Of a stretch of 64,000 nt of DNA, positions 4,041-44,073 are shown one piece after another (within the stretch, counting starts at the first letter, position 1; each line of letters begins with the position of its first letter). The translations under genes were made by a program, and so were the position numbers. The notes under the pieces were generated by a model, which saw only the letters and a program-made list of their open reading frames with translations, did no database searches and was not told the origin of the DNA. The DNA comes from Alphaproteobacteria bacterium (GTDB lineage: Bacteria > Pseudomonadota > Alphaproteobacteria > UBA7887), in assembly GCA_965216755.1 (NCBI GenBank), contig CBDCGL010000011.1, positions 2,784,001 to 2,848,000 of the forward strand, in the 5' to 3' direction.

Positions 4041-4080
4041 TCTATCTGGGTTGCGGATTTTCGTGAAAGGAGGGCCCGAG

Positions 4081-5067: not shown

Positions 5068-5157
5068 CGGGCTATAAGCGGAGCGGTTCATGATCGGCGA
5101 TCGCCGTGGTGTGCCCGGCAGGGGCGTGCCGCCGTATCGCCCAACCGAATCGGCAAG

Positions 5158-6120
5158 ATGTCAATGACACTTCACCAATTGCGCATTTTTTGGGCCGTGG
5201 CCCACGCCAAGTCGTTCACAAAAGCGAGCAAACTCTTAGGCCTGGCGCAACCGTCGCTGTCCCAGCAGATCTCCAAATTGGAAGAGGACATCGGCACGCA
5301 GCTGTTCAATCGCACGCGCAACGAAATGGACCTCACCGATGCCGGGCGTTTCCTGGCCCGCAAGGCCGAACTGATCTTGTCGGGTGTGGAGGAAGCGACC
5401 GTCGGATTGAAGGAATTTGCCGAAGGCACGCGTGGCGTAATCGCACTGGGCGCACTGAGCTCGATCGCGCGCAACGTCGTGCCGCCGGCGGTTCACCGCC
5501 TGGCCGAAGCGTTTCCCGAACTAGAGCTGGATATCCACGAAACGCCGCCGGCGGAGGCGATTGACCTGCTTTATGGGCGCCGATTGACGATGGCGCTGTT
5601 GGCAACCGATTCGTTTGCCCAAGCCAGTTCATCGTTCCACCAAACGGAAGTCTTCGCCGATCCTTACGTGCTGGCGGTGCCGCGTGGCATCGACCTGGCT
5701 GAAGTGCAAGACGTTGCTACCGATCTGGACGAGCCAGAGCGGATGGTGATCAACAGCACCATCCAATTCAATTTCGGCAGCCAGCATAAGCGACGCATTG
5801 AAGAATGGTACCAAACGGTGCTGCCGCATTATCGCGTTGTCGGCCAATCGCGAACCTATGAAGTCGCGTTGTCGATGGTGCAAGAAGGTCTGGGCGTGGC
5901 CGTGGTGCCGGCCCTGACCGCGGCCTTGGGCCCGGGCCTCACGTTTGATGTGACACTGTATGCGACCACTCTACCCGATCGGCAAGTCGTCGCGTTGACA
6001 CCGTCCCAGTATGTGCGGGTCGAGCCGTATGCGCGCCTCTTGGAGATCTTGGATAAGGTCGGCAAAGCCCTCGTTTTGCCCAAGATCGAACCACTACCAC
6101 CATTGCTCAAACATCTTTAA
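5158..6120 (+). CDS. LysR-family transcriptional regulator
   Basis: TLHQLRIF...SFTKAS..LGLAQPSLSQQISKLEEDIG...LTDAG helix-turn-helix followed by a substrate-binding domain. Confidence 0.95.
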   Translation: MSMTLHQLRIFWAVAHAKSFTKASKLLGLAQPSLSQQISKLEEDIGTQLFNRTRNEMDLTDAGRFLARKAELILSGVEEATVGLKEFAEGTRGVIALGALSSIARNVVPPAVHRLAEAFPELELDIHETPPAEAIDLLYGRRLTMALLATDSFAQASSSFHQTEVFADPYVLAVPRGIDLAEVQDVATDLDEPERMVINSTIQFNFGSQHKRRIEEWYQTVLPHYRVVGQSRTYEVALSMVQEGLGVAVVPALTAALGPGLTFDVTLYATTLPDRQVVALTPSQYVRVEPYARLLEILDKVGKALVLPKIEPLPPLLKHL

Positions 6121-6300
6121 ATAATTGAAAATATGAGACAAACGTCGTTCCGCGCGAGACATTGGAAATCGCAATAGCGGCTATAGAATGACCCTTTGCA
6201 GAGGCCTGATAGGTTGGCGTCTGTGATTTGCGGTGAACGGCGCCGACGAGCGTAACAGCCGCGAACGGTGTGTTAAACGCGCAAGCCAGGAGTGGGCACC

Positions 6301-6375
6301 ATGTGGACGAAGCCTGTTGTAGTTGAGTTGGCCGTTGGTCTTGAGATTAACTGCTACGCCTGCGCCGAGCTGTAA
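6301..6375 (+). CDS. pqqA: Pyrroloquinoline quinone precursor peptide PqqA (24 aa)
   Basis: Translation MWTKPVVVELAVGLEINCYACAEL*: W-x-x-P leader and G-x-E-x-x-x-Y core. AGGAG RBS upstream and intrinsic terminator downstream. Confidence 0.9.
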   Translation: MWTKPVVVELAVGLEINCYACAEL

Positions 6376-6404
6376 GAGCCGGATCAGGTTTCCAAGAAGT
6401 TTCG

Positions 6405-6440
6405 CAAACCGCCGGGTGGATCACCCGGCGGTTTGTTTTT
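6405..6440 (+). terminator. Rho-independent terminator of pqqA
   Basis: CAAACCGCCGGGTG-gat-CACCCGGCGGTTTG perfect 14-bp stem followed by TTTTT. Confidence 0.88.
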
Positions 6441-6485
6441 GTGCCCACACTACAAGAACGTAGACCACTGCGATAAGTTCAGTTA

Positions 6486-6594
6486 TTTCGGTGATTTCGG
6501 TGACAGTTTACTAAATACACAACATATCGCGTTTCGGCATTTTCATTCCTCAATACTTTGTGTATTTAGTAAACTGTCACCGAAATCACCGAAA
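6486..6594. repeat. Perfect 37-bp inverted repeat with 35-nt spacer (REP/REPIN- or MITE-like)
   Basis: TTTCGGTGATTTCGGTGACAGTTTACTAAATACACAA (6486-6522) and its exact reverse complement (6558-6594). AT-rich compared with the flanks. Confidence 0.9.
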
Positions 6595-6599
6595 CAAAG

Positions 6600-9023
6600 T
6601 CACAATCCTCGGCGCCACGTTAGCGCGGCAACCGCATAGAGGATGACCGCCAGCAAAACCACCGCCGAAAAGCCGAATTCGATCGCGAGCAAAGTCGCCA
6701 AAACAGCGCTCACCACAGAGGCGCAGCCATTAATCCCCCAGGCCCACGGGACAAGATGCGGCAGTTCATGCCCGACTTGCGCCAAACCAAGGGGGAATGG
6801 CATGCCCATAAAAAACGCCAGCGGTGCAATCGCGAGCAAAACCAAAGGAACCTTTACAGAGACCGGTAGGGTGATCAGCCAGTGGGTCACCGGCCCCAGT
6901 GCAATCAGATAAACAACCGCGATAACCGAAATCACCCCAATCGATACGTCGACTGCCGTCAAGCGACCTGTGTCCGGCATGTACGCGGCCAAGCGCGGGC
7001 TCATCCCGGCGCCTAAACCCGCGAAGACAAGAAACGCCGCCAGCACCACCGCGACGGCGTAAATGGGATGGCCGAGGAACAGTGTCAGGCGTTGAATGAA
7101 GGCCATCTCTACAAACAGAAAGGCCAGCCCGAGAGCGACAAAATAGATCGCGACCCGTCCGGCGCCGCCGCGCACGATAGCCGCATTGCGACGCCACACG
7201 ACAAGCGGCAACAGGATCAGCACGATGCTGACCGCGCAGGCCTGCACCAACGTCAGTACAAGAATGATATGGCCCCACTCGATCAATGGCATGGTCCCTT
7301 GACGACTCAGCGCCAACAACTCCGGTAGTGCATTCCACTTAAGAAAATCATGAAGAAATGGGCGATCGTCGCGTGCGGGGCGCAAATCGAATTTATAGTC
7401 GGCTAAGAACCTCTGGTGTCGCGATCCCAGAAGCGCTGTCGCGCCGTCGTACAAGTCGGGCTCATCAAGAATATTGAATCGATTGGCCTGGTTGCGTGCC
7501 AAACCAGGTGCATAGGTCATGTCGAATCCGCGCGTTTCGGCAAATTGGCCAGCCGCTTCGACCTCCTTTGTTGTCAACGTGCCTCGTTTCACCAGCAGCA
7601 CGACGCTCTTGATGCCACGGATCATCAGCAAACTCTGGCGCGGGTTCGCGGCCGCGACCCGGTGCAGTGCCTCGATCGCCGTCGCCAGCAGCTTCAACGC
7701 CATGCGCGGCGGCGGTTCGAACGGTGCATCAATGGCCAAGAAGCCACCATCGTTCAGGTGTTCAAGATAACCGACGAAGGCTTCGACCGTGGCGCCGTAA
7801 GTCTCTTGCAAACTGCCAAACCCGCCGGCCGTCGCACCGGTCAATGGCAGCCGGATCAAATCAAACCGATGGTCGGCGAGAGCCAGGGCGCCGCGCGCAT
7901 CCGCTATGTGGAATCGCGTACGCGGGATGTCATACACATGTCCGGCATAGTCGGCAAAGCGCGCACGCAGCAACGACGTCACACCGACGTCCGGTTCGGC
8001 AATCTCCACGGTTCGGGCGTCGTGCCGGCGCGCCAGCAGCACTTCGTCAGCAGCTGCGGTGCTGAGCAGCAATACACTTGGTTGCACAAGCAAATGATAG
8101 GGCAGCGCGCGGGTCGTGAAATCGAGATAGGCGACCTTTTCGAGGTCGCCATCAAATCGCGTTATGGCGGCAGTGAAGTTGCCATCGATGAATAGACCCA
8201 ATTGCGCGGCCGGCGGGACAGGGCCCACCAAGCTCAAACCTGGTGCGTGGCGGAATGGTACCTCGGGGCTGCGCACGACCGCCAGCCGACCGAGCGGGCT
8301 GGATTGCTCGTGAATCACTTCGGCGCCGGGCACATGCTGCGCGTAGCTGAGGTCTTTGTATGGCGATAGCTTCGCCATGAACGTCTCAGCCGGTTCGCGC
8401 CACGCAACCATCGCGCCGCACGCAACGATGGCTATGGCCCACCATCTGAAAGCACCATGGCTGTCGCGCAATACGACGAGCGTGGCGGCACCGAAACCGA
8501 CAACAATCAGCCACCGCATCGCATCGCCCGCGGGTAACAGAAACAGCAAGGCCGTGATCGCGGCCGCTCCGGCGCCGGCGCCGGTGAGGTCGTAGCGATA
8601 GACACGCGCGACCGGCGCATTCGCCTCGCCGCCGCCGTGACGCATGAACGACAGGCCAATACAACTCGCCGCACAAAAAAACGGCACCATCAGCACCAAA
8701 TAGGTCCAAAGCAGTTCGATCGCCTGGCCCGGATCCCAAGCCAATTCAAAGGGGTTGATAATAATGTTGCGGGCCACCGAAAAACCATATGCCGCACTCA
8801 GCCCGAACAGTGCGGCGAAGACACCCCACGCTAATTCATAGTGTACCATCAGGCGCGCACGCGCCAAGGCCAGGAATGTCCCGCTGGCGCCATAGCCGAG
8901 CAAGGCAATGGAGATGATCATATAAGCGAAATGGTGCCATTGGCCGGCGGCGTAGAGCCGCATGAGCAGGATTTCGTAAGCGATGGCGCCGGCCGAAACC
9001 AACGAGATCGCCAGGAATGGCAC
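6600..9023 (-). CDS. Multi-pass membrane protein with central spermidine-synthase-like (class I SAM-dependent fold) domain
   Basis: YEILLMR...HHFAYMIISIALLGYGASG TM region, SSPLG, ADARG, TVEAF, DDRPF, LGLAFLFVE, WAWGINGCASV. GTG start abuts the pcm stop. Confidence 0.8.
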   Translation of the reverse strand: MPFLAISLVSAGAIAYEILLMRLYAAGQWHHFAYMIISIALLGYGASGTFLALARARLMVHYELAWGVFAALFGLSAAYGFSVARNIIINPFELAWDPGQAIELLWTYLVLMVPFFCAASCIGLSFMRHGGGEANAPVARVYRYDLTGAGAGAAAITALLFLLPAGDAMRWLIVVGFGAATLVVLRDSHGAFRWWAIAIVACGAMVAWREPAETFMAKLSPYKDLSYAQHVPGAEVIHEQSSPLGRLAVVRSPEVPFRHAPGLSLVGPVPPAAQLGLFIDGNFTAAITRFDGDLEKVAYLDFTTRALPYHLLVQPSVLLLSTAAADEVLLARRHDARTVEIAEPDVGVTSLLRARFADYAGHVYDIPRTRFHIADARGALALADHRFDLIRLPLTGATAGGFGSLQETYGATVEAFVGYLEHLNDGGFLAIDAPFEPPPRMALKLLATAIEALHRVAAANPRQSLLMIRGIKSVVLLVKRGTLTTKEVEAAGQFAETRGFDMTYAPGLARNQANRFNILDEPDLYDGATALLGSRHQRFLADYKFDLRPARDDRPFLHDFLKWNALPELLALSRQGTMPLIEWGHIILVLTLVQACAVSIVLILLPLVVWRRNAAIVRGGAGRVAIYFVALGLAFLFVEMAFIQRLTLFLGHPIYAVAVVLAAFLVFAGLGAGMSPRLAAYMPDTGRLTAVDVSIGVISVIAVVYLIALGPVTHWLITLPVSVKVPLVLLAIAPLAFFMGMPFPLGLAQVGHELPHLVPWAWGINGCASVVSAVLATLLAIEFGFSAVVLLAVILYAVAALTWRRGL

Positions 9024-9782
9024 TTAGTGCCCCCCGGTCAAGGGAACGAAGCTGACAGGCAGAAGCTGGCGGGTGCGCACGCGGCCGTCCGCTGCTTTGG
9101 TGACGAGCACGAGCTGTTGCAGCCGATAGGGCTCACCCACCGGGATCACCATGCGGCCGCCCGGCTTGAGTTGTTCGACCAAGGGCGGCGGCACGTGGCT
9201 GGCGGCCGCGGTGACCAAAATCCCGTCGAAGGGGGCCAGATCCGGCCAGCCGAAATAACCATCGCCAACCCGAGTCGCAACCCCGTCATAGCCAAGTCGT
9301 GCCAAGTCCGCCGCGGCCCGTTCGCCCAGCTCCGGAATGATTTCGATCGTGTGCACGTTGAGCCCGAGTTCGGCCAAGACCGCCGCCTGATATCCCGATC
9401 CCGTGCCGAGTTCGAGCACGTTGTCGCCGGCCTTAGCGCCCAGCAAATGGCTCATAAGAGCGACGATATAGGGTTGCGAAATCGTCTGGCCGTAGCCGAT
9501 GGGCAGCGGTCGATCCGCATAGGCAAAGGCACGTTGATCTTCTGGCACAAATTCGTGTCGCGCCACTCTATCCATGGCGGCAAGAACATCTGATGCGATC
9601 GCACTGCCGCCGGGGTTCGCCCGATCATAAAGTTGAATCACCGCCAGCATGTCGGCGCGCGGTGCGGCATGGGGATCTGTCGGGTCTTGTGCCAGGACGG
9701 CCCCGACGGCAAGGGCGCCGAACCCAAACAAAAAAAATGCCCACGCCGCAAACCGCTTCTTCTGACCAAACATTAGCGTCAT
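9024..9782 (-). CDS. pcm: Protein-L-isoaspartate O-methyltransferase with N-terminal signal/TM segment
   Basis: AYADRPLPIGYGQTISQPYIVA, VLELGTGSGYQAAVLA, APFDGILVTAA, QLKPGGRMVIPVG, FVPL. Start taken at ATG 9782. Confidence 0.93.
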   Translation of the reverse strand: MTLMFGQKKRFAAWAFFLFGFGALAVGAVLAQDPTDPHAAPRADMLAVIQLYDRANPGGSAIASDVLAAMDRVARHEFVPEDQRAFAYADRPLPIGYGQTISQPYIVALMSHLLGAKAGDNVLELGTGSGYQAAVLAELGLNVHTIEIIPELGERAAADLARLGYDGVATRVGDGYFGWPDLAPFDGILVTAAASHVPPPLVEQLKPGGRMVIPVGEPYRLQQLVLVTKAADGRVRTRQLLPVSFVPLTGGH

Positions 9783-9864
9783 TGCGCTTCGTTTGCCCCG
9801 GCGTTCAACCGGCCGCACTTGGCACAAACATCGCGCAGTCGCCACGATCGTGTTGGCAATCGCC

Positions 9865-10149
9865 CTACTCTTCCCCGACCAGCTCTTGCACGGTGTCCGC
9901 ATTCATGCTCGATGCGTAATAGCCAGCCTTGATATCCGCTGCCGCCTCGTCCGGCAAGACCTCGAAAATGACCAGAGCCGGGTTGGGGTCGTCGCCCAAC
10001 GGCGCAGGAACCATCGGCTGGCGATCGCCGAGCGGCTGCAGAAATTTGGCGTCGTTCAGATCGAACTGTGCCGCGCAGTCTTGCACGCTCATCTCAGTAA
10101 CGAGAAAGGGCTCCAGCCCGCCAGGCTTGTGGATCCAAACCTTGACCAT
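9865..10149 (-). CDS. Small hypothetical protein (94 aa)
   Basis: MVKVWIHKPGG... preceded by a GGGAG RBS, plausible codon usage, FNR-type box upstream. No family recognised. Confidence 0.7.
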   Translation of the reverse strand: MVKVWIHKPGGLEPFLVTEMSVQDCAAQFDLNDAKFLQPLGDRQPMVPAPLGDDPNPALVIFEVLPDEAAADIKAGYYASSMNADTVQELVGEE

Positions 10150-10214
10150 GAATTGTGCTCCCAAGTTCTTAGGGGTTGACACAACTCCATGTCACACGGG
10201 GGCGGCCCGCCGCA

Positions 10215-10228
10215 TTGATTGGTATCAA
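10215..10228. promoter_or_regulatory. FNR/FixK/FnrL-type binding box
   Basis: TTGAT-TGGT-ATCAA is an exact match to TTGAT-N4-ATCAA, extended by CA/TG flanks, centred about 72 bp upstream of the ATG at 10149. Confidence 0.8.
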
Positions 10229-10335
10229 TGTTCCGCACCAGCGGCCGATGGACCGCGGCCCCGCGCGGCGCGCCTCCTCTTTTGTGGACAGGCATTTACG
10301 GTCAATCAGACGCCGTCACACATCTTTGCCATCGG

Positions 10336-11268
10336 TTAGAACCCAACTTGATCGCCGCCCTTAAGGCGCAAGATCCCGCGGGCTTCATCGGACGTGGCGA
10401 TCTCGCGGCCGAGGCCTTCAATGATCTGGCGGACCATGCGCACCTGTTCGGCATTGCTTTCGGCGAGCTTCCCGGGACCGGCCCAAAGCGAATCTTCCAG
10501 ACCAACCCGGACGTTGCCGCCCATGGCCGCCGACATGGCCGCGATGCGCATCTGATGCCGACCGGCGGCGAGCACGCTCCACCGATAGTCGTTGCCAAAG
10601 AGGCGATCGGCGGTGCGTTTCATGTGCGCCACGTCTTCCTCATGTGTGCCAATGCCGCCCAGGATGCCGAATACCGACTGGACAAAGAACGGAGGCTTGA
10701 TGATCTGGCGGTCGGCCATGTGCGCCAATGTGTAGAGATGGCCAATATCGTAGCATTCGACTTCGAAGCGCGTGCCGTTTTCGGCACATTCGGTGAGGAT
10801 GAATTCAATGTCCGCGAAAGTATTCTTGAAGAATCCCGATTTCGAGCCTTCGAGATAGGGGCGTTCCCAGGCGAACTTGAACTCGTTGAAACGGGAGAGC
10901 ATCGGATAGAGGCCGAAGTTCATGGTGCCCATGTTGAGGGACGCAATCTCGGGCTTGAAGTTGGTTGCCGGCCGGGCGCGCTCTTCCACGGTCATGGTTA
11001 TGGCGCCACCGGTGGTGATGTTGACTACGCAAGGCGAGCGCTGCTTGATGACTTTCAAGAACGGCGCGAAGGCTTCGGTCGATTGATCGGGCTGGCCGGT
11101 TTCCGGATCGCGCGCGTGGAGGTGAACAATGGCCGCGCCGGCTTCGGCCGCGCCGATCGCGGCGTCGGCGATTTCCTGCGCCGTGATGGGCAGATGCGGT
11201 GACATCGACGGCGTGTGAATTGAGCCGGTGACGGCGCAGGTGATGATGACCTTGTCGGGCGCGGCCAT
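10336..11268 (-). CDS. Beta-keto acid cleavage enzyme (BKACE/DUF849, Kce family)
   Basis: VIITCAVTGSIHTPSMSPHLP, AAIVHLHARDP, ITTGG, PEIASLNMG, GGNVRVGLED. Confidence 0.93.
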   Translation of the reverse strand: MAAPDKVIITCAVTGSIHTPSMSPHLPITAQEIADAAIGAAEAGAAIVHLHARDPETGQPDQSTEAFAPFLKVIKQRSPCVVNITTGGAITMTVEERARPATNFKPEIASLNMGTMNFGLYPMLSRFNEFKFAWERPYLEGSKSGFFKNTFADIEFILTECAENGTRFEVECYDIGHLYTLAHMADRQIIKPPFFVQSVFGILGGIGTHEEDVAHMKRTADRLFGNDYRWSVLAAGRHQMRIAAMSAAMGGNVRVGLEDSLWAGPGKLAESNAEQVRMVRQIIEGLGREIATSDEARGILRLKGGDQVGF

Positions 11269-11286
11269 GGGAAACCTCCTCCGGAT

Positions 11287-12222
11287 TTATTTGCGCGGCT
11301 CTTGCGCGCGTTTGTGGGCGACGAGAGCGGCGATGCGATCATCGCGCCAGCGGCTTTTCGACAAAATCTCAGCTGGAGATGGCGCGTGCCCCCAATCGGC
11401 GACAATGCGCTCAATATTGGCCTGGCTCCAGATCTCTTCTGTCACCGGTTCGCGGGATAGACCATAGAGCGTCGGGCCATAGCGTTCGCAGTAATCGGCA
11501 ATGCCGCCCGGCGCGTTGAGCTCGATCGTCTCAAACGGCCCCATGAAAGACCAGCGCAGGCCGAGCCCATGGGCGATCGTCTTATCGAGATCTTCCGCCG
11601 TGCAGTAGCCCGCGCCAACCAGCCGGAGCGCTTCTGAGAGGAGGACAGCCTGCATGCGATTGAGAATGAAGCCGTCGATTTCCTTTTTGACCTCGATCGG
11701 GACCTGACCGACCGACTCATAGATTTCGCGGGCGCGCTTGATAATTTCACGAGAGGTCCAGGGCGCGCCGCAAAGTTCGACAATCGGGACGACATTTGGC
11801 GGGTTCACGGGATGGGCAATGAGACAGCGTTCGCGGCCATCGAGTCTTTCGGTGAATCGAGACGTGACAATGGCGGAAGAAGAAGACGCGAGAATAGCTG
11901 ACTTCGGCGCCGCGGCATCGAGCGCCTCGAAGATCTGGATCTTTGTGTCAATTCGCTCAGGCCCGGACTCCTGAACGAGGTCAGCGTCCGCGACCGCGTC
12001 TTCCAAACTGTCGGCGACCGCGAGCCTGGCCCCGGCCGCGGCCGGATCCGCGACCAAACCATGGTCCGCGAGATCGGACAGCGAGGTGCGGATCAGGTCA
12101 AGTGCTGTTGTGCGCGTCGGCTCGTGAGCGTCGAAAACGCTGACATCCCATGCCGCACGCGCAAATACATTGGCCCAGGCGCGCCCGATCAGGCCGCAAC
12201 CGACAATAGCGACGCGCGGCAT
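11287..12222 (-). CDS. 3-hydroxyacyl-CoA dehydrogenase family protein (carnitine dehydrogenase/lambda-crystallin-like)
   Basis: VGCGLIGRAW Rossmann motif, VQESGPE, LASSSS, IAHPVNPP, GFILNRMQ, GLGLRWSFMGPFET. Confidence 0.9.
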   Translation of the reverse strand: MPRVAIVGCGLIGRAWANVFARAAWDVSVFDAHEPTRTTALDLIRTSLSDLADHGLVADPAAAGARLAVADSLEDAVADADLVQESGPERIDTKIQIFEALDAAAPKSAILASSSSAIVTSRFTERLDGRERCLIAHPVNPPNVVPIVELCGAPWTSREIIKRAREIYESVGQVPIEVKKEIDGFILNRMQAVLLSEALRLVGAGYCTAEDLDKTIAHGLGLRWSFMGPFETIELNAPGGIADYCERYGPTLYGLSREPVTEEIWSQANIERIVADWGHAPSPAEILSKSRWRDDRIAALVAHKRAQEPRK

Positions 12223-12464
12223 AGTTTTCTCCTTCGCTCTCGTCTCAAGTGGGTTTCAGGTCAGCAGGGACTACGGTGGCGGGCCGTGCCGGCGCAACAC
12301 GTCCATTTTATCCCAAAAGTCGCGGCGGTCACGCGGGTTGGGCCATGCCGCGCGTGTCCGACCGCGCGCTGCGCATCGGCCGCCGGACATGCCGGCAACA
12401 AAGCCCGCTTGGCGACCTGCGCATGAGCCGGGCGCACCAAGACAGACGCGAATCAACCCTCCCG

Positions 12465-34245: not shown

Positions 34246-34409
34246 AAGGCCCTAAAATCGGCGTGGGTGGCAGGTTGCAACGCGAAAAGGAGTGTGTTAC
34301 CTAACGGCGGCCTTTGGCCGGAAGGCTGCCAGCCGTCGTGGTTTGCGGCTGGTTTTCTTTATTGATCAACAGTCTATCTGTTGAGCCGGCTCATCTGAGG
34401 GATTTCAGC

Positions 34410-34970
34410 GTGGCTGAAGAGGCTGCAGGCGTTTCCGGGCTCGCCGGTCGTTACGCGACCGCTTTGTTTGAGTTGGCCGAAGAGCAAGGCCAACTGGACG
34501 ACGTCGCGCGCGACCTGACGACGTTGCGCGCCATGCTCAACGATAGCGACGATTTGCAGCGCTTGGTGAAAAGCCCGGTGATCGCGCGCGACGACCAGGT
34601 CAAGGCTTTGTCCGCGGTGGCGGAACGGGCCGCGTTGAGCGCTCTGGTGCGCAATTTCTTGGGCCTTTTGGCGCGCAACCGGCGCCTGTTCGCCGTCGCG
34701 GACATGATCGCCGCGTTCGGCGCGCTGTTGGCCGCGCATCGCGGCGAGGTGACCGCCCAGGTGAGCAGCGCCCAAGCACTAAGCGACGCGCAAATGGCGT
34801 CTTTGAACGCTAGTTTGAAAAGCGCTATCGGTCGCGACGTGCGGATTGAGGCCGACGTGGACTCGTCCTTATTAGGGGGGCTGGTGGTGCGCATCGGCTC
34901 GCGCATGATCGACAATTCACTCAAAGCCAAGCTGCAAGGGCTTAGGTTGGCGCTGAAGGGCATCGGGTAA
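34410..34970 (+). CDS. atpH: ATP synthase F1 delta subunit
   Basis: [30 protein letters not shown] start at 34410 after GAGGG. Confidence 0.96.
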
Positions 34971-36499
34971 TGGAACTCCGCGCGGCAGAAATCTCCGAAA
35001 TTCTCAAGCAACAGATTGCAAACTTCGGTACCGAGGCAGAGGTTGCCGAGGTTGGCCAGGTCCTGTCCGTCGGCGACGGTATCGCCCGCGTTTACGGCCT
35101 GGACAAGGTGCAAGCCGGCGAGATGGTCGAGTTTCCCGGTGGCATTCGCGGCATGGCGCTAAATCTTGAGTCGGACAATGTCGGTGTCGTGATTTTTGGC
35201 AACGACCGGTCGATCAAAGAAGGCGACACCGTCAAACGCACTGGCGCGATCGTCGACGTCCCCGTTGGCAAGGGGTTGCTCGGCCGCGTGGTCGACGCGC
35301 TCGGCAATCCGATTGACGGCAAGGGCCCGATCGAAGCGACCGAACGGCGCCGGGTCGATGTGAAGGCGCCGGGAATCATCCCGCGACAGTCGGTGCATGA
35401 GCCGATGCAAACCGGCCTGAAAGCGATCGACAGCCTGGTGCCGGTCGGTCGCGGCCAGCGCGAATTGATCATCGGCGACCGGCAAACCGGCAAGACGGCC
35501 GTCGCCATCGACACAATCATCAATCAAAAACCGATCAACGCCGGCGGCGACGAATCGAAGAAGCTCTATTGCGTGTATGTCGCGGTCGGTCAGAAACGGT
35601 CTTCGGTGGCGCAGATCGTTAAGACGCTGGAGGACTATGGCGCGATGGACTATTCCATCGTCATCGCCGCCACCGCGTCAGAACCGGCGCCATTGCAGTT
35701 CCTGGCGCCCTATGCCGGCTGTGCCATGGGCGAGTTTTTCCGCGATAACGGCATGCACGCGCTGATCATCTACGATGATCTATCCAAGCAGGCGGTTGCC
35801 TATCGCCAAATGTCGCTGCTGCTGCGCCGGCCGCCGGGCCGCGAAGCCTATCCGGGCGACGTATTTTACCTGCATTCGCGCTTGCTCGAACGGGCGGCGA
35901 AAATGAACAGCGACAATGGCAGTGGCTCGCTGACCGCCCTGCCGGTCATCGAAACCCAAGCCGGTGACGTGTCGGCCTATATCCCGACCAACGTCATCTC
36001 GATTACAGACGGCCAGATCTTTCTGGAAACCGAGCTGTTCTATCAAGGCATTCGACCGGCGATCAATGTTGGCCTGTCGGTGAGCCGGGTGGGTTCGGCG
36101 GCGCAAGTCAAAGCCATGAAGCAAGTGGCCGGCACGATCAAATTGGAGCTCGCGCAATATCGTGAAATGGCGGCATTCGCGCAGTTCGGTTCCGATTTGG
36201 ATGCGGCCACCCAACGCCTGCTCAATCGCGGCGCGCGTCTGACCGAACTTCTGAAACAGTCGCAGTTCTCGCCAATGACGGTCGAGGAAATGGTGGTGTC
36301 GATCTTTGCCGGCGTGCGCGGCTTCCTTGATGGTATCGACGTCAGCGAAGTCAACCGTTTCGAAGAAGGGCTTCTGGGCGAAGTGCGGGCAAAACACGGC
36401 GATATTTTGGAGACGATTCGCAACGAGGCGGCAATCTCCGATGAAACTGACGGCAAACTGACGTCGCTCATGACCGACTTTGCCAAGACGTTTGCTTGA
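34970..36499 (+). CDS. atpA: ATP synthase F1 alpha subunit
   Basis: [29 protein letters not shown]. Confidence 0.99.
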
Positions 36500-36537
36500 T
36501 CACGCAGTGAATACAGCGTCGACAGCCGGACCGCCCT

Positions 36538-38917
<2,380 letters not shown>

Positions 38918-38922
38918 CTGTT

Positions 38923-39333
38923 ATGGCCGACAAGGTTGAATTCGAACTCGTCTCGCCCGAAGCCCTGGTCGAATCGCGCCAGGTCGACATGGTCGTCGTG
39001 CCTGGAGAGGAAGGCGATTTCGGTGTGCTGCCGGGCCATGCGCCCTTCATCTCCCAAGTACGCCCGGGGTTGATCGAAATCTATGATGGTCAGAACGTCA
39101 CCGATCGCCTGTTCGTCGACGGCGGGTTTGCCGAGGTCACGCCGGAACGCTGCACGGTGCTGGTCCAGGAAGCGGTGCCGCTTGGCAACTTGGATCGCGA
39201 CATGGTCGATGCGCGCATCAAAGCCGCCCGTTTAGCCATAGAGGACGCCCAAAACGACGCCGAACGCGACGCCGCGGCCCACCGCCTCAAAATAGCCGAG
39301 AGCATGCAAGAGGTGCTCGCCGCCGCCCTTTAG
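38923..39333 (+). CDS. atpC: ATP synthase F1 epsilon subunit
   Basis: FELVSPE, GDFGVLPGHAP, GGFAEV. Confidence 0.98.
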   Translation: MADKVEFELVSPEALVESRQVDMVVVPGEEGDFGVLPGHAPFISQVRPGLIEIYDGQNVTDRLFVDGGFAEVTPERCTVLVQEAVPLGNLDRDMVDARIKAARLAIEDAQNDAERDAAAHRLKIAESMQEVLAAAL

Positions 39334-39544
39334 CGGCATTTCCGTCAGGGCATTTCGCAACGCATCATCAGATGACCGTCCGTGCTGCGCAAAACAGGCC
39401 GATCGAGCAATGGCCATCACTGTCTAATTCGTTGCGAAATCGTGTCATTTCACGTCTATTACATTCTTAGGCGGCTCAGCGTTTGCCGCCGAGGTCACAT
39501 TGCTTTAGGCTTATCATAACGATGTCATCATCACACGAACGGGC

Positions 39545-40360
39545 ATGAAGGACTGGTCACTCGACGACATTCCCTGGCACGCTTTCCAGGCAGACAAAGT
39601 GGATCCGCAGTTGCTGGGCGCGGTCAAGGCCGCGGCGCTGGTCGAACATAACGGCCGCGACTACGAAACATACCTGCACAATGTCTTCCACAATGAACCC
39701 GACTTTTGCGACACCGTCACGAAATGGGCGGCGGAAGAAGTGCGCCATGGCGAAGCACTGGGTCGCTGGGCGGGGTTGGCCGACCCGGAGTTCGATTTCA
39801 CGGCGTGTTTTGGCCGCTTTCGATCCGGCTATCAATTGCCGCTAAAGGCATCCGATTCCGTGCGCGGTTCGCAGGCGGGCGAACTGGTCGCGCGCTGCGT
39901 CGTCGAATCTGGAACTTCATCCTTTTATTCCGCCATGCGCCACGCTGCCGACGAACCGGTTTTACAAGAGATATGCCGTTTGATCGCGGCGGACGAATTT
40001 CGCCATTACAAATTGTTCTACGATGGGCTAATGCGCTATGTGCGCAGCGGCGAGATCGGTCGTGCTCGGCGAATTATGATTGCATTGAGCCGCGTCATCG
40101 AATCCGAGGATGAAGAACTCGCCTATGCGTATCATTGTGGCAACAAGCTGCCTGAGCCCTTCGACCGGCGCGCCTGCAGCCGCGCCTATGCGCGCCGCGC
40201 CTATCGCCTATATCGATTCGGCCATTTGCGCCAGGGGCTTGGCATGACTCTGAAGGCCGCCGGGCTGAAACCGTATGGCCGGATCGGCACGGCGCTCAGC
40301 CGCCTGTCATGGCGCTTCATGCAGTTTCGGATCCGCATGTTGGACCGGGTGGCGGCCTGA
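39545..40360 (+). CDS. Ferritin-like di-iron domain protein
   Basis: W..DDIPW N-terminus and paired E / EXXH ligands: LVEHN, EEVRH, VVESGT, DEFRHY. Confidence 0.85.
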   Translation: MKDWSLDDIPWHAFQADKVDPQLLGAVKAAALVEHNGRDYETYLHNVFHNEPDFCDTVTKWAAEEVRHGEALGRWAGLADPEFDFTACFGRFRSGYQLPLKASDSVRGSQAGELVARCVVESGTSSFYSAMRHAADEPVLQEICRLIAADEFRHYKLFYDGLMRYVRSGEIGRARRIMIALSRVIESEDEELAYAYHCGNKLPEPFDRRACSRAYARRAYRLYRFGHLRQGLGMTLKAAGLKPYGRIGTALSRLSWRFMQFRIRMLDRVAA

Positions 40361-40584: not shown

Positions 40585-41097
40585 ATGAACGCATTTCTGA
40601 AGATCTCGGCCGCCGTCGCTGCTTTGACCGTGGTTTCCGTTTCGGCCGCTTCGGCTGACGATGTCAACTTCGACTTCACCAAGGTTAAGCAAAAAGCCGC
40701 CGTCGTGAACGTTCTGTCGAACAACGACTTCGGCAAGGAAAGCGGCGCCAAGAAGGGTGGCCTGACGGTCAACGGTGTGCTGCAGGATGCGGTCATCGCC
40801 GAGGGCAATGCCACGGTCGCGGTTGGCAACTACGCCGACGCCCGCACCCGGATCGGCACGGTCGAGAACGGTGAGATCAACGGTGTGATGCAGCGTGCCG
40901 TGATCGCCAAGGACAACGCCAACGTCGCCTACGGCAACTACGCCTACAGCCGCCTGCACATCGGCACGGCGCGTGACATCGAGGTCAATGGTGTTGTGCA
41001 GCAGGCCGTGATCGCGAAGCGCAACGCGGCGGTGTCTGTCGGCAACCACACCACCACCTGCATGGAGATTGGCACGCTCGGCACCCCCACTTGCTAA
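40585..41097 (+). CDS. Secreted protein with three 36-aa tandem repeats (predicted beta-solenoid; candidate fibre/functional amyloid major subunit)
   Basis: Sec signal ending ASA|DD. Three repeats NGV.Q.AVIA..NA.V..GN.......IGT. C-terminal C-x10-C. AGGGG RBS and strongly biased codons. Confidence 0.8.
   Translation: MNAFLKISAAVAALTVVSVSAASADDVNFDFTKVKQKAAVVNVLSNNDFGKESGAKKGGLTVNGVLQDAVIAEGNATVAVGNYADARTRIGTVENGEINGVMQRAVIAKDNANVAYGNYAYSRLHIGTARDIEVNGVVQQAVIAKRNAAVSVGNHTTTCMEIGTLGTPTC
40768..41094 (+). repeat. Three imperfect 108-bp coding tandem repeats
   Basis: Units start at 40768, 40876 and 40984 (GTC AAC GGT GTG / ATC AAC GGT GTG / GTC AAT GGT GTT). Confidence 0.88.
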
Positions 41098-41126
41098 GCG
41101 GAGCCCAATCCCAACGTGACGGCTTA

Positions 41127-41166
41127 GAGGGCGGGACCCGCGGAAACGCATACGGGTTCCGCTCTT
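41127..41166 (+). terminator. Intergenic stem-loop (leaky terminator or mRNA stabiliser)
   Basis: GAGGGCGGGACCCG / CGGGTTCCGCTCTT 14-bp stem with three G-U pairs and a 12-nt loop. No long U tract. Confidence 0.65.
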
Positions 41167-41233
41167 CGCTGCGAAACCAAGACATCAGCCCGAACGGCAC
41201 CGTTCGCAACCAATGCCAACAAGGATACCGACC

Positions 41234-41539
41234 ATGACCAAAGCAGCTTTCGTGATCGCGTTCGCCAGCGCCCTGACCATGGCCGCCGCCACCGGCGCCA
41301 GCGCTAAAGAGTTCAATCAGCGGCCCCATTTGGATTCGGGCTCTCAGTCGCGCGTCAACAGCGCGTTTGCCAAGACCTTCCTGAACCGCGGCCAAGCCCG
41401 CCGTTTGGAAGATCGCGCCAGCGACTGCGGCAATGTCAGCATCGGCAACGTCGATCCGGGCAATGGCCAAGCCCCGCGCGAGATTATCGTCGTAGCCAAG
41501 AACGTCATCAACGTTGTCGGCCCCGGCGGCTGTCGCTGA
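41234..41539 (+). CDS. Small secreted protein with a Cys pair and one permuted copy of the neighbouring repeat (candidate nucleator/minor subunit)
   Basis: AAGGA RBS, signal ending ASA|KE, C-terminal CGNVSIGNV...REIIVVAKNVINVVGPGGCR. Confidence 0.78.
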   Translation: MTKAAFVIAFASALTMAAATGASAKEFNQRPHLDSGSQSRVNSAFAKTFLNRGQARRLEDRASDCGNVSIGNVDPGNGQAPREIIVVAKNVINVVGPGGCR

Positions 41540-41578: not shown

Positions 41579-41875
41579 TCACCGACCGATCGAAACTGGC
41601 GCGAGCGCCGGAAAGCGCACCACATAGTAGGGGGGCGCCGAGTCATTGACGCCCCCGTTGAGGCGCGCGGACTTGTGGAGACGATTCACAGCCGCGTAAA
41701 TGTAGTTATCCGGACCGGTCGCAAATCCATCCGGCCAGTCGAGAAGATCATCGTCGGACACCAGCAGCTCATACGTGCCATCCGGCCGCGTCACGCCGAT
41801 GCCCTTGGCGTTCATATCCGTGATGTAGACATTGCCGTGATCATCAATGGTGATGCCACCGCAGGGCGGCGCATT
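41579..41875 (-). pseudogene. 5'-truncated fragment of a major royal jelly/yellow (L-dopachrome tautomerase-related) beta-propeller gene
   Basis: PPCGGITIDDHGNVYITD...LLDWPDGFATGPDNYIYAAVNRLHKSARLNGG...PYYVVRF...GR*. In-frame TGA at 41876-41878, and no N-terminal part nearby. Confidence 0.72.
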
Positions 41876-42036: not shown

Positions 42037-42354
42037 TTAGTCCTGCGACGAATCGATAATGATCTCGTCACCGTTGCCGTCGTCTTCGGTTTGGTCTGAT
42101 GTCGGCGCGTCATCCGCGCCCTCGTCCGTTTCGGTAGGCACCTGCGGAACGGTGGGCATCGGCAGGGGTTGCGCCTCTTCAAGCCGCTCGGGAGTCCAGA
42201 ATTCTTCGTCCTCAGTGGTCTGTTCGGGCGCGTCTTTTCTTTCAACCTCGGTGTCTTTACGATCATCGTCACCACGTTCGGCGGCGCCCGCACCAGTCAT
42301 GTGCATTGCTATTCCAATCCAAATCAGGGCCACTATTTCACGTTTCACACGCAC
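42037..42354 (-). CDS. Secreted acidic protein consisting only of a protease-propeptide-like motif
   Basis: GGAGG RBS, GTG start, signal-like N-terminus, EEFWTPERLEEAQPLPMP motif, very D/E-rich. Confidence 0.75.
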   Translation of the reverse strand: MRVKREIVALIWIGIAMHMTGAGAAERGDDDRKDTEVERKDAPEQTTEDEEFWTPERLEEAQPLPMPTVPQVPTETDEGADDAPTSDQTEDDGNGDEIIIDSSQD

Positions 42355-42415: not shown

Positions 42416-43423
42416 TCAATTGCACCGCGCGTCAACGTAGCGGAGCAAGCGCCAGGTGTTGCGATCAAAATACGGGCCCCACATTTCCTTTGGGCTGTTT
42501 ATGTATTTGAATGAGTTCAGGCCGATTGCGTAGTTGTTTGCACCGGACTGCCCCACTTTCAAATCACCGATCCAACTGCCACCGCTGGAACCGCCACCGA
42601 AGGAATTGCGTTTCATTTCGACGACGCCATTGGTCACGCGCCCCCGCCAGCCTTCAATAACTTGCATATACTTGCCACTGTCAAAGTTGCTGGGATAGCC
42701 GATCGAATGAAATCGACGATAAGGGATGCCCGTGCGAAATCCGAGATGTCCTCCCTTTGACGCTTGCGCCATGCAAATAAACGCATAATCCCACTTGTAC
42801 GGCCATTGCGCCGTGTACCAATTCTTGTAGATGGCGATGAATCTCGGCGATGCAAGTTGACCATTGCCATTGGCGTAGGCGCGGTAAAAACGGTGATTGT
42901 TGTACCAGCGTTTGTTCCTTCGATCATAAACGCAATGTGCGGCCGTCATCAGCACACGGCGATCAGCCACATATTGTGCCGAGCAATACGCCGTTCTAGG
43001 CGTTCTAAAATAGAGTTTGCCGCCGGCGGAGAACGGGAAAACCTTTACATTCGCGCGACGTGACGCGCCAAGGGCCGGGTCTTCCAAATCCTCATCGCTG
43101 GCGTCCTCGGCCTGCGCCGACTCGATCACTTCCGGCTCTGAGTCCGCCAGTTCATCAATCATGTCGGCCTCGGTCGGCGCCAGAAACTCCTCGAATTGCT
43201 CTTCCGAGATAACCGGCAGTTCGACAGGCTCGGCAAACTCTAGCTGTTCCTCAACCCAGAAGGCGTCCGCCTCTGCCGCCATGTCCTCTTGAATTTCGAG
43301 GACATCGATAGACTGGTCTGCCGCGCCCCCTTCATCTCCAGTGTCAATATCTTGAGCAAGAGCGGTGCCCGCCAAGATCAAGCAAGCTCCGATCATGCTC
43401 ATAGGTCCACGCACACACATCAT
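42416..43423 (-). CDS. Secreted trypsin-like serine protease (V8/glutamyl endopeptidase-like) with acidic propeptide
   Basis: Signal peptide, GKLYF, YCSA, MTAAHCVY (His), WDYAF (Asp), IGYP, GGSSGGSW (Ser). GAGGGAGG RBS before ATG 43423. Confidence 0.9.
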   Translation of the reverse strand: MMCVRGPMSMIGACLILAGTALAQDIDTGDEGGAADQSIDVLEIQEDMAAEADAFWVEEQLEFAEPVELPVISEEQFEEFLAPTEADMIDELADSEPEVIESAQAEDASDEDLEDPALGASRRANVKVFPFSAGGKLYFRTPRTAYCSAQYVADRRVLMTAAHCVYDRRNKRWYNNHRFYRAYANGNGQLASPRFIAIYKNWYTAQWPYKWDYAFICMAQASKGGHLGFRTGIPYRRFHSIGYPSNFDSGKYMQVIEGWRGRVTNGVVEMKRNSFGGGSSGGSWIGDLKVGQSGANNYAIGLNSFKYINSPKEMWGPYFDRNTWRLLRYVDARCN

Positions 43424-44073
43424 GATTAACCTCCCTCTTTCTAAAAACCCAAGTCTCCAATAAACGAGAAACAAACATTGCAACAAACAAACCTAACCGC
43501 GTAATTTACCTGGGATTGTTTCATTCGATACCAAACATGGATTGATCGACTGCTTTCCATACTCTCTCATTGTTCAAAAATACTGTTTATATTGGTAGAC
43601 TTAATTGTCCTTTCCTCAGCATATCGCATTGCAATTACTTGCTTATTTTTTTTCTGAAAGTATTTATTTGTATTTCATTTCCTCGCGAAGGAAGAATGTC
43701 AAACAAACGCCGGCACACATTCAACATGGCGATCTGCAGGTCACCGCAGAAAGAACCCGTATTACGTGTGTTTATGGACCATAACACACGTTAAAGTCGT
43801 TATTCTACTGAAAAGATTTCCTCGGCAACAAAAAGACTGCCACCGATTCTAATTCGGGAATTTGTTATGGCATCACGCGTTTGGGGGATATTCGGTCACT
43901 CTGGTGGCACCATTCCGGCTGCGCGACTTGGACGTCAATGCCACGTAAACGCCAACAGCCGACGTAATAGTTCACGTGCGGCCAGCACGTTCTGTTTTCA
44001 TTCGTCCGACTTAAAAACAATCACAGCGACCGCTGACCTACCAAGTCGAAGCGCTGTATTGCTATCAATCGCG

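Follow-up and report, generated by a model that had tools for sequence, protein, structure and literature searches.

Two adjacent genes, A and B, on the + strand of the window (the whole 64,000-nucleotide stretch of DNA that was analysed) encode small proteins with putative secretion leaders, and A belongs, by its sequence, to a rare and unnamed family whose members are small, secreted and built wholly of repeats. The order of A, an RNA hairpin and B is kept in three loci, two of which also have a CsgG-like lipoprotein gene adjacent to the pair. These comparisons make it plausible that the A-B pair specifies a new kind of surface fibre. The particular reading that we favour, tentatively and at a little under an even chance, is a fibre like curli or the holdfast anchor, built from a new subunit family, with A as its abundant subunit, B as a minor accessory and the channel encoded elsewhere.

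Two genes and the hairpin between them

Gene A (40585..41097, + strand, stop codon included) was assigned from its open reading frame, its GC3 and its relatives. Its GC3 of 0.82 is coding-like and comparable to that of the window's housekeeping genes, and the 170-residue all-repeat product, putatively secreted, is 89% identical to a database protein of the same length, P0002. The leader, as read from the translation, comprises residues 1-24 (40585..40656, + strand) and is putatively of the Sec type, with a positive residue, a hydrophobic core and the sequence ASA before DD. The mature protein would then open with a non-repeat segment, residues 25-61 (40657..40767, + strand), which gives no score with the repeat HMM and is missing in the relatives at the other two A-B loci (L001 and L004), where the repeats begin right after the leader.

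The remainder of A consists of three tandem 36-residue repeats on the + strand: residues 62-97 (40768..40875; 49.9 bits with the repeat HMM), residues 98-133 (40876..40983; 46.9 bits), and residues 134-169 followed by Cys170 (40984..41094; 46.1 bits). The period-36 identity score is 40, as compared to 8.3 +/- 2.7 (maximum 21) in 10,000 shuffles, and 16/36 positions are invariant among the three repeats. The third holds a C159-x10-C170 pair at the very end of the protein. At the DNA level, TRF detects a period of 108 bp (2.4 copies, 75% matches); the repeats are just 63-70% identical in nucleotides, yet the 16 residues are kept. AlphaFold2 (AF2), run on a 15-sequence alignment and judged from confidence values and secondary structure, models residues 61-170 at pLDDT 70-93 and residues 1-56 below 50, with disorder predicted through residue 56 of the N-terminal segment. 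Three strands are predicted per repeat, recurring at a 36-residue offset (64-72, 76-80 and 85-94; 100-108, 112-116 and 121-130; 136-144, 148-152 and 157-165). Hexapeptide repeats of the left-handed beta-helix were considered as well, 36 being 2 x 18, and were set aside, as there was no Pfam Hexapep match.

The RNA hairpin that separates the two genes (41127..41166, + strand) has a 13-bp outer stem plus three inner pairs and a folding energy of -31.1 kcal/mol (z -4.38), and none of 200 shuffles was as stable. Hairpins at the same position have z -3.26 in L001 and z -4.63 in L004, placing one after the A-like gene in 3/3 A-B loci. The window hairpin has no T-run terminator and no Rfam match, and it was not found as a repeated element within the window.

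Gene B (41234..41539, + strand, stop codon included) encodes a putatively secreted 101-residue partner and has a GC3 of 0.76, again coding-like and comparable to the window's housekeeping genes. The start at 41234 is preferred over that at 41213 because AAGGA lies 7 nt upstream of it and the resulting product is identical to P0022. Its putative Sec leader, read from the sequence, has a positive residue, a hydrophobic core and ASA before KE. Homologues are P0004, P0005 and P0006, together with the B-like protein of L001 (hhalign 98%, E 1e-13). An alignment of six sequences (B itself, its L001 counterpart and four database proteins) reveals two conserved parts of the mature protein: the N-terminus, residues 25-43 (41306..41362, + strand), in which E26, N28, Q29, R30, P31, L33, G36 and V41 are invariant, and a 36-residue module bounded by Cys65 and Cys100 (41426..41533, + strand), both invariant. 

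These results bear out most of what the first-pass annotation had described, namely two co-oriented genes (both ORFs are on the + strand, at 40585-41097 and 41213/41234-41539), Sec leaders ending in ASA (both N-termini fit by reading of the sequence), three exact-period 36-residue repeats in A (residues 62-97, 98-133 and 134-169, far above shuffles) and a terminal C-x10-C; the 14-bp stem-loop it had placed between the genes is close to the structure measured here. It had also proposed a permuted A repeat between the two Cys of B, and this stands only in part: Cys65 to Cys100 is exactly 36 residues, whereas homology to the A repeat does not emerge. A circular (doubled) repeat profile aligned to the B Cys segment scores 12.3 (E 0.031), a value reached by 7/200 column shuffles, making the kinship of this module with a permuted A repeat marginal. 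When the A and B profiles are compared by hhalign the leaders alone match, and for mature B proteins between 7 and 60 of 300 shuffles score as well with the A HMM. A detectable relationship of B to A is thus not established by sequence comparison. Without demonstrable kinship between the two proteins, the proposal that B is a related minor nucleator, as in curli and Fap, fails as well.

The A family and the other A-B loci

A phmmer search with A against 1.84 billion representatives returned 17 proteins at E <= 1e-3. P0003 (149 aa, resembling A in its first 56 residues only) was left out of the A-family alignments, as were the unrelated-looking long repeat proteins P0010 (812 aa) and P0016 (1328 aa), with E of ~1e-4 to 1e-5. 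The repeat HMM was built from 47 repeats, aligned from 17 of the 18 proteins supplied, and A's own three score 46-50 bits each against it. The family signature is Gly3, Ala19, Gly21, Ala26, Ile30 and Gly31, with Gly31 present in 47/47 repeats, Gly3 in 45/47, Ala19 in 42/47 and Ile30 in 37/47. The best period is 36 in 13/18 sequences. A C-terminal Cys pair, its second Cys at most three residues from the C-terminus, occurs in 14/18, and ten of those 14 have a spacing of x9-x12. Relatives of A carry between one and four repeats, and their mature forms are repeats alone, with no capping domain. Homologues at 25-35% identity retain leader, period and Cys pair, and A itself carries the traits of the family: a leader, 2-4 tandem 36-residue repeats and a terminal Cys pair.

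The first-pass annotation had assigned neither protein to a characterised family, and the searches agree. Neither A nor B matched Pfam, NCBIfam or the E. coli CsgA/B/C/E/F proteins, and the Pfam and NCBIfam scans found no binding or enzymatic domain in either. The NCBIfam scan also took in 15 relatives, and these too drew no match from any of its models, whatever the name; a PDB sequence search gave no credible match for the A profile, the B profile or the L001 lipoprotein. PHROGs had no match for A or B, and two relatives gave only weak matches of unknown function. A RiPP precursor was considered and rejected, the sole signal being a leader-only NCBIfam match to HvfA (E 0.13). Every source name encountered among the relatives was "hypothetical" or "unknown function", and no literature was found on either family. 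By tblastn against plasmids, A and B had no match, nor had their L001 counterparts, P0015 or P0026; the L004 A and B proteins matched only themselves. In a genome scan, over a collection that contains neither the source genome of the window nor close relatives of it, the A profile recovered one relative among 33 pattern matches and the B profile none among 44. Within the window, neither A nor B has a paralogue.

The A-B synteny rests on three loci: the window, L001 (an alphaproteobacterial MAG) and L004 (the Azospirillum lipoferum 4B plasmid AZO_p4). Both of the other loci inspected repeat the arrangement of the window, with a hairpin between an A-like and a B-like gene, which answers the earlier suggestion to look for co-occurrence of the pair elsewhere. 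In L001 an A-like gene with four repeats is followed by the hairpin, the B-like gene and a lipoprotein gene, and a second A-family gene has no adjoining B. The order in L004 is the same, save for two more genes between the B-like gene and the lipoprotein. The L004 A-like gene was found with an HMM E of 1.3e-6 among 752 ORFs; its B-like gene matches L001 B by BLASTP at E 3e-4, a weak assignment given the B HMM (E 0.045) and hhalign (18.6%). Also common to L001 and L004 are an OmpA-family gene (1.2e-16) and a 224/280-aa protein, X, with no assigned function (3.5e-13).

Downstream of the pair, L001 and L004 encode a lipoprotein in which a divergent CsgG/HfaB-like domain is joined with a peptidoglycan-binding domain and DUF4384, in line with the earlier suggestion to search for CsgG-like neighbours. 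A lipobox is present in the lipoproteins of L001, L003 and L004 (3/3). PG_binding_1 and DUF4384 are well over threshold, whereas the CsgG assignment draws on sub-threshold matches. Against Pfam CsgG (cut-off 20.8 bits), two of these three lipoproteins score 18.8 and 16.3 bits, the former being that of L001 (E 1.1e-3), and the L004 lipoprotein has no match at E < 0.01. The best NCBIfam match in the N-terminal CsgG-like region of the L001 protein (residues 139-258) is HfaB, at E 3.7e-5 and 23 bits against a cut-off of 300. By BLASTP the L001 lipoprotein aligns colinearly with E. coli CsgG from the lipid Cys onward (E 1e-4), and a three-sequence lipoprotein profile aligns with E. coli CsgG by hhalign at 77% (E 2e-5) over 209 columns. 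An OmpA-family gene lies beside the lipoprotein gene in 3/3 loci. A. ramasamyi encodes the same type of lipoprotein without A or B within 6 kb; upstream of its lipoprotein/OmpA module lie instead two DUF4399 proteins and a 111-aa Pro/Ala/Gly-rich protein. 

Genes for a channel, an OmpA-family protein or X are all lacking in the window itself. Tblastn of the L001 lipoprotein on it gave a best E of 0.097, and CsgG, DUF4384 and OmpA domains were absent from the 53 window ORFs scanned, so the earlier statement that the channel gene lies outside the window agrees with both. The accompanying claim of an independent fibre family divides in two: the subunits are new, while the machinery probably is not, if the channel is a CsgG homologue.

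A proposed surface fibre and competing readings

Under the fibre reading, A and B would make up a conserved module of two genes whose products are exported envelope proteins, with A produced in excess over B. Cleavage of the leader would leave a mature A consisting of a flexible N-terminal segment and three 36-residue coils and nothing else, each coil having three beta-strands with Asn/Gly corners and the last bearing the Cys159-Cys170 pair. We infer export through the lipoprotein channel, polymerisation, and the roles of B and the hairpin as follows. A would pass the outer membrane unfolded via the CsgG-type lipoprotein channel and would then polymerise as its open-ended solenoids join end to end; structures of that kind are stated to polymerise in the available excerpt of PMC10192328. 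Its place would thereby be that of the major, stacking subunit in a surface fibre resembling curli or the holdfast anchor, with B as a low-abundance accessory: a nucleator, adaptor or anchor. How much A is made relative to B may be set by the hairpin, which would either cause partial termination or stabilise the transcript of A. The CsgG-like/peptidoglycan-binding/DUF4384 lipoprotein and its OmpA-family partner would be encoded outside the window in this genome.

The C-terminal Cys pair could speak against a fibre by acting as a cap that blocks stacking. A serious competitor, to which we give a substantial minority share of belief, takes up this point: A would be a non-polymerising, disulfide-capped beta-solenoid of the periplasm or surface with a structural, binding or envelope-stress role, B a separate periplasmic partner, and the lipoprotein/OmpA pair a peptidoglycan-tethering complex with no channel. 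Such a complex is suggested by the peptidoglycan-binding and DUF4384 domains, which clear their thresholds while CsgG does not, and by the constant presence of an OmpA-family, that is, peptidoglycan-associated, gene beside the lipoprotein (3/3 loci). The lipoprotein also occurs without A or B, A and B occur in a window that has no channel, and the conserved terminal Cys pair could cap the last coil. The colinear similarity to CsgG, from the lipid Cys over 209 columns, argues for a channel nonetheless, the mature relatives of A are bare repeats with no capping domain, and the strong hairpin after the A-like gene in all three loci fits a subunit made in bulk.

The fibre reading could also be carried further, and we consider the extended form rather unlikely. 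In it A would found a third, hitherto unrecognised Gram-negative class of functional amyloid, a three-strand, 36-residue open solenoid exported by a divergent CsgG-type channel with fused PG-binding and DUF4384 domains and an OmpA-family partner. B would be a dedicated nucleator or anchor consisting of one permuted coil, which a disulfide would close, and docking via its invariant N-terminal peptide; the hairpin would set the ratio of the two, and the window would be a satellite subunit locus served in trans from elsewhere in the genome.

An unlikely alternative, below both of these, is that A and B leave the cell by a general route, through Sec and a CsgG-like exporter, and form no fibre, A being soluble and secreted or else surface-displayed (for instance an adhesin, or a solenoid that binds ice or minerals) and B a co-secreted factor or chaperone. 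The A. ramasamyi module, with other small secreted proteins upstream of its lipoprotein and OmpA genes, suggests such a cargo-flexible exporter, and the A family is small and divergent; set against this, A and B have no binding or enzymatic domain, and regular uncapped repeats together with a conserved, dedicated partner would be typical of self-assembling subunits. That the ORFs are not genes and the repeats a non-coding tandem DNA repeat, for which only the small ORF size and the lack of annotation names speak, can in practice be rejected given housekeeping-like GC3 in both ORFs, conservation of residues over nucleotides among the repeats, distant homologues with the same leader, period and Cys pair, and synteny across three loci.

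To our knowledge, few dedicated bacterial fibre-amyloid systems are understood, namely curli, Fap and the holdfast anchor; studies of controlled protein polymerisation, as well as nanopore or biomaterial engineering, have drawn on each of them. If the fibre reading is correct, a new subunit family on a CsgG-like channel would mean that this export route serves unrelated cargos, and A would be a very small (~110-residue) three-coil solenoid and a model building block. Fibres of the A type could also help explain amyloid-like matrix signals in bacteria without curli genes; in Azospirillum baldaniorum, the available portion of PMC13723633 describes a Thioflavin-positive, formic-acid-resistant matrix protein in the absence of csgA or csgG.

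Comparison with curli, Fap and the holdfast anchor

A resembles the curli subunits in being putatively Sec-exported, small and composed nearly entirely of imperfect repeats in which Asn, Gly, Ala, Val and Thr abound. A further likeness is the modelled disorder of its N-terminal segment, which parallels the N22 segment of CsgA, for which the excerpt of PMC10192328 gives a pLDDT of 47. A CsgG-similar lipoprotein lies downstream in 2/3 A-B loci; many alphaproteobacterial curli loci are themselves described, in the part of PMC3521004 at hand, as having no csgE/F/G beside the subunit genes. The repeat itself differs: in curli it is 23 +/- 5 residues long, forms a two-strand beta-arch and carries the curlin motif of N-x-psi-x-psi-x-Q pairs (PMC10192328, same excerpt), as opposed to 36 residues and three predicted strands in A. 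Pfam Curlin_rpt detects no curlin signature in A even at E <= 10, and an 18-sequence A profile aligns with E. coli CsgA and CsgB at hhalign probabilities below 1%. Furthermore, B is no paralogue of A and matches none of CsgB, CsgC, CsgE and CsgF, and the lipoprotein of the A-B loci bears extra PG-binding and DUF4384 domains.

For FapC, the first-pass annotation had cited a terminal Cys motif. Like Fap, A has three imperfect repeats, although relatives of A have one to four, while the number in Fap is, as far as the source extends, reported as fixed. Conserved Asn and Gln occur in the A repeats as in the description of FapC, and the FapC Greek-key and the three predicted strands of the A repeat both go beyond a simple two-strand arch (PMC12822426, as excerpted). 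In contrast to Fap, the A repeats are joined without long linkers and B is no FapB-style paralogue. At the level of family models, nothing named for Fap in Pfam or NCBIfam gave a match, and no FapF, FapD, FapE or fapA-F operon was seen in the window, L001 or L004.

The third system, the holdfast anchor (HfaA, HfaD, HfaE, HfaB), is linked to the A-B loci by HfaB, the best NCBIfam match of the L001 lipoprotein in its CsgG-like region, although the 23 bits of that match are far under the cut-off of 300. NCBIfam includes an HfaA model, and none of its models, under any name, matched A, B or their relatives. No HfaD-like gene was seen, and the gene order of the A-B loci, A-B-lipoprotein, is unlike that of the holdfast anchor. 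The Caulobacter anchor is described, in the accessible parts of the sources, as made of small secreted proteins that form SDS-resistant multimers and need a CsgG-like lipoprotein (10.1101/2022.07.20.500906, PMC6707917). On these partial accounts, HfaA and HfaB offer an alphaproteobacterial precedent for a small subunit served by a CsgG-like lipoprotein.

Organisation of the A-B locus

Genes A (40585-41097) and B (41234-41539) are two co-oriented open reading frames on the + strand, and the leaders of their products both end in A-S-A, as the first-pass annotation had read them. The 170-aa protein A is composed of a leader that is Sec-type by sequence, a non-repeat segment (residues 25-61) and three repeats of exactly 36 residues (62-97, 98-133 and 134-169) with 16 of 36 positions invariant. 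The exact period claimed earlier is upheld by a period-36 identity score of 40, as compared to 8.3 +/- 2.7 (maximum 21) in 10,000 shuffles, and by a 108-bp period detected in the gene by TRF; the terminal Cys pair was likewise confirmed as C159-x10-C170, Cys170 being the final residue. Since the repeat copies are only 63-70% identical as DNA, what has been conserved is the protein motif and not a recent duplication. An AF2 model built from a 15-sequence alignment (mean pLDDT 66, pTM 0.61) gave values below 50 for residues 1-56 and 70-93 for the 10-residue blocks of 61-170, with strands at 64-72, 76-80 and 85-94 that recur at +36 and +72. Judged from these confidence values and the predicted secondary structure, A is compatible with a solenoid of three strands per coil and corners at Asn/Gly.

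The stem-loop between the genes is present at 41127-41166, with 13+3 bp, close to the 14 bp described earlier (-31.1 kcal/mol, z -4.38), and none of 200 shuffles was equally stable. It has no T-tract, no Rfam match and no second copy in the window. The preferred start of B is 41234, with AAGGA 7 nt upstream and a 101-aa product identical to the database protein P0022. In this product the leader precedes a conserved N-terminus, which a variable linker joins to a 36-residue segment between Cys65 and Cys100.

The pair is preceded by the atpHAGDC operon and a ferritin-like gene (together 34314-40360); on its other side a convergent block precedes lpdA-sucBA-sucDC. GC3 (A 0.82, B 0.76) resembles that of housekeeping genes. 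The 271-aa protein directly upstream of A (39545-40360, +) is putatively ferritin-like, with only weak diiron-type matches (FA_desaturase_2 4.6e-6, Rubrerythrin 7e-4), both at residues 118-164. The open frame convergent on B (41579-41875, -) has 98 codons, or 78 aa from its first start codon. Its product is reminiscent of the final blades of a beta-propeller (a weak match to Pfam SBBP, E 0.0074), and it is probably what is left of a truncated gene. Beyond it, an acidic secreted protein of 105 aa (42037-42354, -) adjoins a secreted protein of 356 aa (42416-43486, -) with a trypsin-like TAAHC/GGSSGG core and weak Pfam matches (Trypsin_2 E 0.0028, Trypsin E 0.02); an acidic N-terminal FW..E.L..A.P stretch is common to both. 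GC is lower in this part of the window (0.51-0.58), 43400-43799 is AT-rich (GC 0.39), and the area looks like a small acquired island adjoining the A-B pair. Elsewhere in the window, an 806-aa open reading frame (6600-9023, -) with coding-like GC3 has no Pfam match at E <= 0.1.

Relatives of A and B

The placement of A and B outside characterised families held in every library searched. Neither protein yielded anything above noise in Pfam or NCBIfam at E <= 10, nor did 15 relatives at E <= 1; the A and B profiles had no sequence match among solved structures, and PHROGs gave none for either protein. A word-indexed search with A returned itself, P0002 (170 aa, 89% identical and presumed to be a paralogue within the same genome) and one fragment, and no others. 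At E <= 1e-3, an exhaustive phmmer search of 1.84 billion representatives gave 17 proteins, of which P0003, P0010 and P0016 were left out of the A-family set. P0003 (149 aa, from an 840-base contig) is nearly identical to P0002 over its first 56 residues and belongs to a different family, Pfam PF01925, over the remainder; its make-up suggests either a chimeric assembly or a gene call with a frameshift. The remaining relatives (96-234 aa, mostly with leaders) are built from the same type of repeat. An iterated repeat HMM aligned 47 repeats from 17 of the 18 proteins given, with conservation strongest at Gly31 (47/47) and Gly3 (45/47), followed by Ala19 (42/47), Ala26 (39/47), Ile30 (37/47) and Gly21 (36/46). 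Among 18 sequences of a set that differed slightly from this one, 36 was the best period for 13, and 14 had a Cys pair whose second Cys lies within 3 residues of the C-terminus, with x9-x12 spacing in 10 of those.

Relatives of B comprise two that are 87% and 75% identical and a third, on small contigs, that is 44% identical. B had been described as one permuted repeat between two Cys and as a related minor nucleator. The idea of a permuted coil is attractive because the Cys65-Cys100 module is exactly 36 residues long, and in three different B proteins a C-x-x-[IV]-G-x-V stretch aligns with strand three of the A repeat. The likeness itself is marginal: a doubled A repeat profile matched B at E 0.031, a score also reached by 7 of 200 column shuffles, and the A HMM scored mature B proteins no better than 7-60 of 300 shuffles. 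The leader is the one part over which the profiles of A and B match, and kinship of B to A as its nucleator was not borne out.

Conserved gene order and a CsgG-like neighbour

A genome scan with the B profile gave no locus, and one with the A profile gave a single locus, L001, which lies in the MAG of an uncultured alphaproteobacterium on a contig of 274 kb. There, the product of an A-like gene (9794-10336) has four 36-residue repeats and a terminal Cys pair. After this gene come a 13-bp hairpin (z -3.26), a B-like gene (10408-10776; 98% and E 1e-13 by hhalign with the B profile) and a gene for a 514-aa lipoprotein (10883-12427). The lipoprotein contains DUF4384 (2e-14) and PG_binding_1 (2e-8) domains, with CsgG (1.1e-3) and HfaB (3.7e-5) below threshold, and its BLASTP alignment with E. 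coli CsgG (E 1e-4) starts at the lipid Cys and is colinear. Azospirillum plasmids hold two homologues, and a three-lipoprotein profile matched CsgG over 209 columns (hhalign 77%, E 2e-5). On A. lipoferum 4B plasmid AZO_p4 (L004), the run of genes leading to the lipoprotein gene begins with one for a 97-aa A-like protein (leader plus two repeats; E 1.3e-6 with the A HMM in a set of 752 ORFs). A perfect 13-bp hairpin (z -4.63) separates it from a gene for a 126-aa protein of B layout (E 3e-4 by BLASTP with the L001 B; only E 0.045 with the B HMM), after which come two further genes. An OmpA-family gene follows the lipoprotein in A. lipoferum and A. ramasamyi (L003) and lies 1.4 kb downstream in L001 (L001 against L004 protein, 1.2e-16). 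A-like and B-like genes co-occur again in L001 and L004, with the CsgG-like lipoprotein and OmpA genes near.

Both of these clusters also encode a protein without a Pfam match (L001 14539-15213, 224 aa; L004 4718-5560, 280 aa; BLASTP 3.5e-13), which may be a further component or regulator. Two cases run counter to this pattern. A second A-family gene in L001 (6199-6714, -; P0026, 53% identical to the database protein P0021) has no B adjoining. In the 2000-6714 stretch that it opens on the minus strand, three more genes follow, for a small lipoprotein, a secreted protein whose end is a long run of Gly, and a caspase (Peptidase_C14)-Sel1/TPR-PG_binding protein of 990 aa. A. ramasamyi carries the lipoprotein and OmpA genes with no A or B within 6 kb. 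In its 4244-10005 region these two genes are flanked instead by genes for two DUF4399 proteins, two secreted proteins (one of 111 aa, rich in Pro/Ala/Gly; one of 118 aa, containing Cys) and another DUF4384 protein, and these neighbours suggest that lipoprotein/OmpA is a cargo-flexible module.

The window itself has no channel gene, as had been noted: the L001 lipoprotein gave no tblastn match better than E 0.097, the OmpA and 224/280-aa proteins none at E <= 0.05, and CsgG, DUF4384, OmpA and other outer-membrane channel domains are absent from the 53 ORFs scanned with Pfam.

A fibre reading and known systems

The A gene-hairpin-B gene order is kept in 3/3 loci, although the proteins are 25-35% identical and the hairpins are unrelated in sequence, and this argues for a functional module that would need A in excess over B. 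Strong intercistronic hairpins are known to stand 3' of the major-subunit gene in pilus operons. Of the mechanisms considered, a fibre like curli or the holdfast anchor is best supported, by the bare uncapped repeats and the disordered N-terminus together with the CsgG/HfaB-like neighbour of two loci, and we favour it tentatively; A would be its subunit, produced in excess of B. The main rival, to which we give a lower, still appreciable probability, holds that A is an envelope protein that does not polymerise and is tied to a lipoprotein/OmpA complex which anchors to peptidoglycan, and it draws on the sub-threshold CsgG scores of the lipoprotein, its strong PG-binding and DUF4384 domains and its occurrence without A or B.

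In the literature searched, no paper was found linking DUF4384 lipoproteins to CsgG or describing A-type repeat proteins. The disordered N-terminus of A can be likened to CsgA N22, and the statement on polymerisation of solenoids with open ends applied to A by comparison, both as given in PMC10192328. A departs from curlin in both motif and repeat length, its profile gave nothing against E. coli CsgA or CsgB by hhalign, and it has no homology to Fap or HfaA in the libraries searched. Unlike CsgB and FapB, the minor subunits of curli and Fap, B is no detectable paralogue of the repeat protein it accompanies, and its profile gave nothing against CsgB, CsgC, CsgE or CsgF. The proposed independence of the fibre family stands for the subunits, which lie outside the curlin and Hfa families, and probably not for export, where the likely channel, if confirmed, would be a divergent member of the CsgG/HfaB family. 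The A-B system would work like curli or Hfa, outside both subunit families.
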